From the NCBI RefSeq assembly GCF_024502345.1, contig NZ_JALDNN010000001.1: a stretch of DNA of 64,000 nucleotides. One strand, written 5' to 3'. A program made the position numbers. This stretch comes from Escherichia coli. Its GTDB lineage: Bacteria; Pseudomonadota; Gammaproteobacteria; Enterobacterales; Enterobacteriaceae. Shown one piece after another: positions 36,001 through 39,000 of this stretch. Position 1 is the stretch's first letter. The number at the start of each line of letters is the position of its first letter.

Positions 36001-39000
36001 CGGCGCAACCATTTCGCCATTGGTATTAAAGGCGACAGTTTTCCATTCCGGATTGTTTTCCTGGCCCAGCGCATCAACCAGATCAGCAGCGCGCAGCATA
36101 CGACCTGCAGCGTAGTAACCGTCGCGTTCTTCCAGCATCACCAGCATCGGCATGTCGGTGTAGCGACGCACATAGTCGGTGAAATACTGGCTTGGGTTGT
36201 CGAGGTGGAATTCACGCAGCATTACGTGGCCCATCGCCAGCGCCATTGCCGCATCGGTGCCCTGTTTCGGTGCCAGCCACAGATCGCACAGTTTGGCGAT
36301 TTCAGCGTAGTCTGGTGTGACGGCAACAGTTTTGGTGCCTTTGTAACGCACTTCAGTAAAGAAGTGAGCATCCGGGGTACGCGTCTGCGGCACGTTTGAA
36401 CCCCAGGCGATGATGTAGCTGGAGTTGTACCAGTCAGCAGATTCCGGTACGTCAGTTTGCTCGCCCCAGGTTTGCGGAGACGCAGGAGGCAGGTCGCAGT
36501 ACCAGTCGTAGAAGCTTAAGCAAGTACCGCCAATCAGCGAGAGATAGCGTGCACCCGATGCGTAAGAAACCATCGACATTGCCGGAATTGGCGAGAAACC
36601 AGCAACACGGTCCGGGCCGTAGTTTTTGATGGTGTAAACGTTAGATGCGGCGATCAGCTCGTTCACCTCCTGCCAGGAAGAACGAACAAAACCACCGCGT
36701 CCACGCGCCTGCTTAAAGCTTTTCGCTTTATCGGCGTCTTCAATGATAGAAGCCCATGCCTCAACCGGATCGCTATGCAGCGCCTTCGCTTCACGCCACA
36801 TTTTCATCAGGCGTTTGCGCATCATCGGGTATTTCAGGCGGTTGGCACTGTAAAGATACCAGGAGTAGCTGGCACCGCGCGGGCAGCCGCGAGGTTCATG
36901 GTTTGGCAGATCCGGACGGGTACGCGGATAGTCAGTCTGCTGGGTTTCCCAGGTGACCAGACCGTTTTTGACGTAGATTTTCCAGCTGCAGGAGCCGGTG
37001 CAGTTTACCCCGTGGGTAGAGCGGACGATTTTGTCATGCTGCCAACGCTGGCGATATCCATCCTCCCAGTCACGGTTGGTATTGAGAAGCTGGCCATGCC
37101 CATCGGCAAAGGTTTCACCCTTCTGTTTGAAGTAGCGAAACCGGTCCAGGAATTTACTCATCGGTTTTCTCCTGTGGGAGCCTGTCGGCCCTCTGATAAA
37201 TCGACATTGCTAATGTTTAAGGGCAAGGTAACGCTCTGAAACAGCGTGGGAATTGATAACGATCAAGAGTGATGGGGATGAAAAATAAAGTAAATTCCTA
37301 AGGTACCCCTTTAGGATAATTAACAGTTACAGCATAACATACTGTAAATTAAGACGTTTTATACCTGTAGTTATTTAAACTATTAAGATTTTTATGCAAA
37401 TGGGTATTAAGGAGTATTCCCCATGGGTAACATATTAATGGCTCTTAATGAAATCCGGTGATGCTGCCAACTTACTGATTTAGTGTATGATGGTGTTTTT
37501 GAGGTGCTCCAGTGGCTTCTGTTTCTATCAGCTGTCCCTCCTGTTCAGCTACTGACGGGGTGGTGCGTAACGGCAAAAGCACCGCCGGACATCAGCGCTA
37601 TCTCTGCTCTCACTGCCGTAAAACATGGCAACTGCAGTTCACTTACACCGCTTCTCAACCCGGTACGCACCAGAAAATCATTGATATGGCCATGAATGGC
37701 GTTGGATGCCGGGCAACCGCCCGCATTATGGGCGTTGGCCTCAACACGATTTTCCGCCATTTAAAAAACTCAGGCCGCAGTCGGTAACCTCGCGCATACA
37801 GCCGGGCAGTGACGTCATCGTCTGCGCGGAAATGGACGAACAGTGGGGATACGTCGGGGCTAAATCGCGCCAGCGCTGGCTGTTTTACGCGTATGACAGG
37901 CTCCGGAAGACGGTTGTTGCGCACGTATTCGGTGAACGCACTATGGCGACGCTGGGGCGTCTTATGAGCCTGCTGTCACCCTTTGACGTGGTGATATGGA
38001 TGACGGATGGCTGGCCGCTGTATGAATCCCGCCTGAAGGGAAAGCTGCACGTAATCAGCAAGCGATATACGCAGCGAATTGAGCGGCATAACCTGAATCT
38101 GAGGCAGCACCTGGCACGGCTGGGACGGAAGTCGCTGTCGTTCTCAAAATCGGTGGAGCTGCATGACAAAGTCATCGGGCATTATCTGAACATAAAACAC
38201 TATCAATAAGTTGGAGTCATTACCATGAAATCCGGCGAAATAAACCATATAACATTAGTATGTTGTAACTAAATGACGCATAAAAAAAGCGCGACATCAT
38301 GCCGCGCAAAGGATAATCAAATATTAAGATTTATTTTTTAGAATGCCGACCATATACCGCCCAGGTAATCACTACGCAGGCGATATAGAAAATCAAAAAT
38401 ACCTTCATTGCGCCGACTGGCGAACCCGTTAATGCCAGCGAGCTACCAAACGCTTTCGGGATAAAGAAGCCACCAATCGCGCCAATCGCAGAGATGAAAC
38501 CCAGCGCCGCCGCCGTGTCGGTTGCCGCTTCACGCATCGCACGTTCGTCAGAACCCCCTTCTGCTTTCACGCGATCCATTGTCAGTTTACGGAAGATCAC
38601 TGAAATCATCTGGAAAGTGGAACCACTACCCAGCCCAGCTGTCAGGAACAGCGCCAGGAAGACCGCGAAGAACGCCATGAAGCTTCCGCCCTGCCCGTCA
38701 GTTGGTAAGGTCAGGAACAGCAGGCCGCTGAAAATCGCCATCAGAATAAAGTTCACCAGCGTGACACGAGTTCCGCCCAGACGGTCAGATAATGCACCAC
38801 CTGCAGAACGCGCCAGCGCACCAATAAACGGCCCGAAGAAAGCGTATTGCAGAATCTGAACATCCGGGAACTGCGTTTTTGACAGCATTGCAAAGCCCGC
38901 GGAGAAGCCGATGAAGGAGCCGAAGGTTGCCAGATACAGCAGGCTCATAATCCACAGATGACCCCGTTTGAGTACCGGCAACTGCTCCTTGATGGAGGCT

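Follow-up and report, generated by a model that had tools for sequence, protein, structure and literature searches.

Does a copy of IS1 inserted upstream of narGHJI, the operon for respiratory nitrate reductase A, leave the control region of that operon intact? The question is raised by a 64,000-nucleotide stretch of Escherichia coli DNA (RefSeq assembly GCF_024502345.1, contig NZ_JALDNN010000001.1; hereafter the window), in which an IS1 lies between narG and narK. An initial annotation of the same DNA had placed the narG control region at 37162-37456, and these limits coincide exactly with the native DNA bounded by the narG start codon (37161) and IS1, a non-coding segment of 295 bp. This segment is the narGHJI control region, lying on the minus strand and directing leftward transcription. 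We consider it very probable that the region is canonical and that the intact IS1, which begins at -239 relative to the predicted transcription start, interrupts no known cis element; since none is interrupted, narG regulation would be expected to be essentially wild-type. The system is already known, this copy of the narG promoter keeps all known regulatory sites, and the IS1 polymorphism is probably neutral. Joint activation by FNR, NarL and IHF at narG is a textbook case, and in that respect the finding matters little. For annotation, IS1 can be placed outside both the narG regulatory region and a nearby replication terminator that we take to be TerD, so misregulation of narGHJI is not to be assumed in this lineage.

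Promoter geometry and regulatory sites of narG

The elements of the control region are as follows, with positions relative to the predicted start.

37218, minus strand: predicted narG transcription start, +1 (A), from primer anchoring; equals K-12 coordinate 1279807
37225-37230, minus strand: predicted -10 hexamer TACCTT (-12 to -7), from its position relative to +1
37253-37266, no strand assigned: FNR box TTGATCGTTATCAA (narG strand), perfect consensus, centre -41.5
37304-37310, plus strand: NarL heptamer TACCCCT, centre -89, inverted relative to narG
37313-37319, minus strand: degenerate partner half-site TTATCCT (-101 to -95), putative, 7-2-7-like with the -89 heptamer
37335-37347, minus strand: position homologous to the IHF core (-129 to -117), TTACAGTATGTTA, three mismatches to WATCAANNNNTTR
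37400-37406, minus strand: NarL heptamer TACCCAT, centre -185, TACC core kept across genera
37410-37416, minus strand: NarL heptamer TACTCCT, centre -195, exact consensus
37423-37429, minus strand: NarL-type heptamer TACCCAT, centre -208, invariant in seven aligned E. coli-type sequences

The numbering was anchored on two published primers (PMC9314961, supplement), narGup223 (CCATTAATATGTTACCCATGGGG), which marks -223 and maps to 37441, and narGDown, which marks +70 and maps to 37149. Because these primers fix both positions, +1 falls at 37218, a start that we infer from the anchoring together with identity to K-12 over -84 to +60. The initial annotation had reported a perfect FNR box at 37253-37266, and TTGATAACGATCAA was read at exactly these coordinates. 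Once +1 is set at 37218, the box is centred at -41.5, and the promoter geometry that had been proposed agrees with a chromatin immunoprecipitation (ChIP) study of FNR (PMC3688515), which reports TTGATnnnnATCAA as the consensus and lists narGHJI at -41.5 in its Table 1. The window contains three perfect TTGAT-N4-ATCAA boxes where 0.14 would be expected, a count that no sequence reached in 100 shuffles; besides the narG box (37253), one is in the narK promoter (39782) and one within purU (29397). A simple promoter scan missed the narG promoter itself, as is expected for an activator-dependent promoter.

The distal pair of NarL heptamers that had been described on the minus strand at 37400-37416 was recovered there, the segment reading TACTCCTTAATACCCAT. 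A proximal TACCCCT-like heptamer had also been placed near 37301; the heptamer is present, with an exact TACCCCT on the plus strand, but its position had to be corrected to 37304-37310. The third distal heptamer, at 37423-37429 on the minus strand, had gone unlisted. Four TACYYMT heptamers thus lie within 126 bp, whereas the window-wide rate predicts 0.087 (Poisson P about 2e-6). The heptamer centres at -89 and -195 agree with the published footprints of phosphorylated NarL (NarL-P) on narG, which are centred in the -89 region, the high-affinity one, and in the -195 region (PMC4549865). The degenerate half-site TTATCCT may pair with the -89 heptamer in a layout resembling 7-2-7; in other genera, the columns corresponding to -101 to -86 read TACCACT-TT-GGTGGTA, and narG has been described as having no true 7-2-7 site (PMC4549865).

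Activation of narG requires FNR and IHF (PMC4549865), and its IHF dependence is cited both there and in PMC3688515. No match to WATCAANNNNTTR with two or fewer mismatches was found at -129 to -117, either in the window or in K-12. An IHF consensus scan of the window returned 68 matches compared with 63 expected, indicating no enrichment, and none of them lay in the -125 region of narG. The same scan matched both ends of IS1, with one mismatch to WATCAANNNNTTR at 37468-37480, within the left inverted repeat (IRL), and with none at 38201-38213.

Conservation of the control region in E. coli

When IS1 and one copy of its target-site repeat were removed, the spacer aligned without gaps to the narK-narG spacers of E. 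coli. Over -238 to +60, the window and K-12 MG1655 were identical at 291 of 298 positions, the seven substitutions falling at -181, -122, -114, -113, -110, -109 and -85. All seven leave the four heptamers, the FNR box and the -10 hexamer untouched, and -84 to +60 is identical throughout. The five changes within -122 to -109 form an allele that is also found in strains 88-3493 and O157, as is the change at -181. The closest E. coli alleles with an empty site have a 392-bp spacer, from which the reconstructed empty site of the window differs by two single-nucleotide polymorphisms (SNPs), at -123 and -85. The T>C at -85 was absent from 14 other E. coli-type alleles, and its column is weakly conserved as T across genera; it is the only lineage-specific change that is possibly of regulatory interest. 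All of the named elements were invariant among seven diverse E. coli-type alleles.

The window therefore resembles K-12 MG1655 in its FNR box, its -10 hexamer and its equally spaced heptamers at -89, -185, -195 and -208, and likewise in having narG downstream and narK, the narK terminator and TerD upstream. It differs from K-12 in the seven SNPs, in the IS1 at -239 and in the lack of a 123-bp ERIC-like element.

The coding sequences gave a similar picture.

33418-37161, minus strand: narG (nitrate reductase A alpha subunit), 1247 amino acids, ATG at 37161-37159, from the open reading frame list and tblastn

By tblastn, all 1247 residues of NarG match the protein annotated in E. coli 100416, a common allele, at 100% identity. 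NarH, NarI and NarL were full-length and 100% identical to the E. coli reference, and NarJ, NarK and NarX were full-length with 99-100% identity. The genes for the cognate regulators, narXL, lie near narG, with the gene order of E. coli, and the whole 64-kb window is colinear with E. coli through trp/opp, adhE, hns, nar, cha, hemA, prs, ychF and ycgV. The best complete E. coli genomes shared 99.2-99.6% identity with the window over 18-25 kb, and the source may be a Shigella-type lineage or one of E. coli that is not yet sampled.

These comparisons bear on the possibility that the motif matches are coincidental, or that decay in an insertion-sequence-rich, Shigella-like genome has reduced the locus to a remnant whose control region no longer works. 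No complete E. coli genome exceeds about 99.5% identity to the window, which fits a Shigella-type origin, and pseudogenes are common there. The motif statistics, however, oppose chance; the region is base-for-base collinear with the K-12 narG upstream region; the structural, transport and regulatory nar genes are full-length and 99-100% identical to those of E. coli; and colinearity with E. coli extends over all 64 kb, with a single IS1 IRL present. We regard both coincidence and decay as exceedingly improbable, and as essentially refuted.

Conserved islands across genera

Species-representative genomes were scanned for a narG start preceded, at a distance of 75-105 bp, by an FNR box. Many Enterobacterales genera, together with a few Vibrio, contributed to the 120 loci returned, and 115 of these were stacked on the FNR box. 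Conservation of the box carries no weight here because loci were selected for having one, whereas the columns upstream of it are unbiased. Among the 115 loci, conserved islands were found at -198 to -183, at about -141 to -117, at -101 to -86 and at the -10 positions.

NarL-site conservation was strongest at -195, where 66 of the 115 loci carried a consensus heptamer exactly in register and 21 more carried one at -196 or -197. It was also present at -89: an inverted heptamer of strict consensus occurred in 20 of 115, and the core GGKGGTA at -92 to -86 was conserved far more widely than this strict consensus. The -208 heptamer was not conserved outside Escherichia. An information peak at about -141 to -117 included, in 49 of 115 loci, a match to WATCAANNNNTTR with no more than one mismatch starting at -129 or -130. 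In the -10 element, T-12, A-11 and T-7 were among the most conserved columns. No conserved column block appeared in -205 to -248 across the 115 Enterobacterales loci.

The footprint thus independently recovers the -195/-185, about -125, -98/-89 and -10 elements, alongside the -41.5 box on which the loci were selected. Conserved islands at the positions named in the initial annotation argue that those elements are under selection across genera.

Anatomy and position of IS1

The insertion comprises the following features.

37457-38224, plus strand: IS1, 768 bp, IRL on the narG side, with intact insA/insB'
37512-37787, plus strand: insA, with Pfam domains Zn_ribbon_InsA and HTH_Tnp_IS1 (E = 3e-21 and 1.7e-30)
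37706-38209, plus strand: insB' (frameshifted), with Pfam domain DDE_Tnp_IS1 (E = 2.3e-78)
37448-37456, no strand assigned: left target-site duplication ATGAAATCC, 9-bp direct repeat
38225-38233, no strand assigned: right target-site duplication ATGAAATCC, 9-bp direct repeat

The IRL at 37457 is an exact match to GGTGATGCTGCCAACTTACTGAT and is the only IS1 IRL in the window; the inverted repeats are imperfect over 23 nt, with termini that start GGTGATGCTGCC and GGTAATGACTCC. In its length of 768 bp, its 23-nt imperfect inverted repeats, its insA/insB' arrangement and its 9-bp duplication, the element shares the features of canonical IS1. Its top hits among E. coli genomes carry the annotation IS1 family transposase; identity to IS1 copies there reaches 99.4%, with no 100% match reported. 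Both insA and insB' read away from narG. To the right of IS1, 106 bp of native DNA precede narK (38331-39722, minus strand).

That IS1 lies just upstream of the control elements, and not within them, had been proposed earlier and is borne out here: its start at -239 is beyond all four heptamers and 28 bp past the outermost one at -208. The insertion site is in a non-conserved AT-rich spacer between that heptamer and the TerD/Tus site. The position can also be compared with promoter fragments used in published work. The segment -223 to +70 has been called the full-length narG promoter, and a hybrid promoter carrying its upstream NarL-site segment showed strong nitrate induction (PMC9314961); NarL-P footprinting was performed on a fragment from -236 to +155 (PMC4549865). 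IS1 is outside both. In a simple scan, no sigma-70-like promoter was found reading out of IS1 toward narG, and only the inward promoter of the IRL was detected.

TerD and the narK terminator

Two further elements lie between IS1 and narK.

38253-38275, plus strand: TerD replication terminator (predicted Tus site) CATTAGTATGTTGTAACTAAATG, 23-mer intact, G6 at 38258
38282-38307, minus strand: intact intrinsic terminator of narK, GCGCGGCATGATGTCGCGC with a T-run after it, located between TerD and narK, identical to K-12

The site at 38253-38275 is presumably TerD, a name that we take from its place on the K-12 map at about 1.279 Mb. The window has a single match to the 16-nt Ter core, AGTATGTTGTAACTAA, at 38257-38272; it agrees exactly with the defining core AGNATGTTGTAACTAA, keeps the conserved G6 and equates to positions 1279530-1279545 of K-12. 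The same core sequence is printed for TerB in PMC4499146. Replication forks moving counter-clockwise are arrested at TerD (PMC5638614), and Ter sites A-E are intergenic (PMC8347550). Like TerD of K-12, the site in the window is intergenic between narK and narG, with an identical core and G6 present; unlike in K-12, an IS1 lies 28 bp from position 1, at the non-permissive end, leaving the 23-mer untouched. The intact G6 also distinguishes it from the terD variant of S. flexneri described in PMC8347550. IS1 interrupts neither TerD nor the NarL sites.

A 15-mer, TTAGTTACAACATACT on the narG strand, has a 12-mer core that is exact in 64 of the 120 Enterobacterales narK-narG spacers, mostly at -268 +/- 2. 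It was considered as an unknown cis element and rejected, as it equals the Ter core. The narK terminator, TerD and the upstream sites of narG thus make up a fixed architecture across Enterobacteriaceae.

Distribution of the insertion

A search of 5426 complete E. coli genomes found none with IS1 at this site. Two of these genomes, MEC2025-PR and P276M, carried an IS1 elsewhere in the same spacer (locus positions 1848-2614 and 2890-3657, respectively), in both cases with the IRL toward narG, as in the window. Their duplications differ, being AAGAGCCAT in MEC2025-PR and CAACATACT in P276M, indicating independent insertions. In P276M, the duplication AGTATGTTG equals Ter positions 5-13, so that IS1 lies within the 23-mer and abuts an intact Ter core. 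Counting the one in the window, three IS1 insertions of the same orientation therefore fall within about 45 bp of spacer on the side of Ter that faces narG, its non-permissive side.

The narK-side junction of the window recurred, identically, in at least six other public assemblies, namely GCA_050029375.1 and GCA_036619395.1 and the ENA records ERZ27258762, ERZ1744996, ERZ28666041 and ERZ28663999; in these, the contigs stop 53-142 bp into IS1. Because at least six other assemblies share this junction, the insertion is a stably inherited feature of a repeatedly sampled lineage, alongside an intact nar locus, and neither an assembly artefact nor a one-off event; it looks fixed in that lineage. 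The exact narG-side junction gave no matches in a JGI metagenome scan. An exact look-up of the NarJ allele, which is too common to be discriminating, returned only contigs without IS1, and the narG-side junction was not found elsewhere by this route.

The junction carriers include metagenome assemblies, and their record names, taken alone, suggest human-gut cohorts.

These data bring in the alternative that IS1 is not neutral: with an IHF-binding end at about -250, and with TerD/Tus and the narK terminator moved 777 bp away, it would alter the induction or basal expression of narG and may be selected. In keeping with this, the IRL has the one-mismatch IHF consensus at 37468-37480, the insertion is inherited in the six or more other assemblies, two other E. 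coli hold independent IS1 copies of the same orientation in the same 45 bp or so, and the lineage has its private SNP at -85 beside the -89 heptamer. However, all of the published fragments -223 to +70 and -236 to +155 are retained, the spacer is unconserved across genera, no outward promoter emerged from the scan, only 2 of 5426 complete genomes have an IS1 in the spacer, and the shared orientation of the three events has a chance probability of 0.25. We consider a non-neutral IS1 unlikely. The broader proposition that the lineage-fixed IS1 is no bystander, either because it retunes narG induction or because IS1 inserts preferentially into the spacer next to the non-permissive face of TerD, seems to us improbable as well. 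If true, such a preference would tie the choice of target by IS1 to fork arrest or to DNA bound by Tus.

Expected regulation of narG

The reading that we prefer is a canonical control region with IS1 placed outside it, and the steps established in E. coli K-12 would then apply to the window. Under anaerobiosis, an FNR dimer on the -41.5 box would act as a class II activator of RNA polymerase at a weak promoter (-10 TACCTT). In the presence of nitrate, NarX would phosphorylate NarL, and NarL-P would fill the high-affinity -89 region and the lower-affinity cluster at -185, -195 and -208. IHF would bend the DNA around -125, bringing the remote NarL complex to the promoter. Both the protein occupancy of these sites and the neutrality of the insertion are what we infer from sequence.

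Several observations weigh against this reading. The IHF core is unreadable by consensus; where it would be expected from homology, the closest match to WATCAANNNNTTR has three mismatches. The lineage-private T>C at -85 (window position 37303) is immediately next to the -89 heptamer. Over the 295-bp region, 99.3% is the highest identity reached by any E. coli genome in the collection. IS1 displaces TerD/Tus 777 bp further from narG, and its end is a potential new bend site at about -250, which could conceivably have a quantitative effect on narG.

Other observations at the locus

A 123-bp ERIC/IRU-like palindrome directly follows the narK stop codon in K-12 (locus 2350-2475) and in O104:H4; the window (38326-38331) is without it, and so are O157, 88-3493 and STEC299, like many E. 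coli. In K-12, the element lies inside the annotated small RNA gene narS (b4813). An Rfam scan of 36900-40300 (E <= 0.1) gave no matches, including in the narK 3' region, and so detected no known RNA family there, for example an sRNA from the narK 3' UTR.

The third perfect FNR box, TTGATGCTTATCAA at 29397-29410, lies within the purU coding sequence (28931-29770) and is probably a chance match; purU is unmentioned in the main text of the FNR ChIP study. The narK promoter carries its own perfect FNR box, TTGATTTACATCAA, at 39782-39795, for which a position of -41.5 has been reported (PMC3688515), and NarL-type heptamers upstream of it at 39834-39840, 39938-39944 and 39958-39964. It resembles the narG promoter in its dependence on FNR and NarL, its perfect FNR box and its upstream TACYYMT heptamers, and differs from it in serving another gene and in the arrangement of those heptamers.

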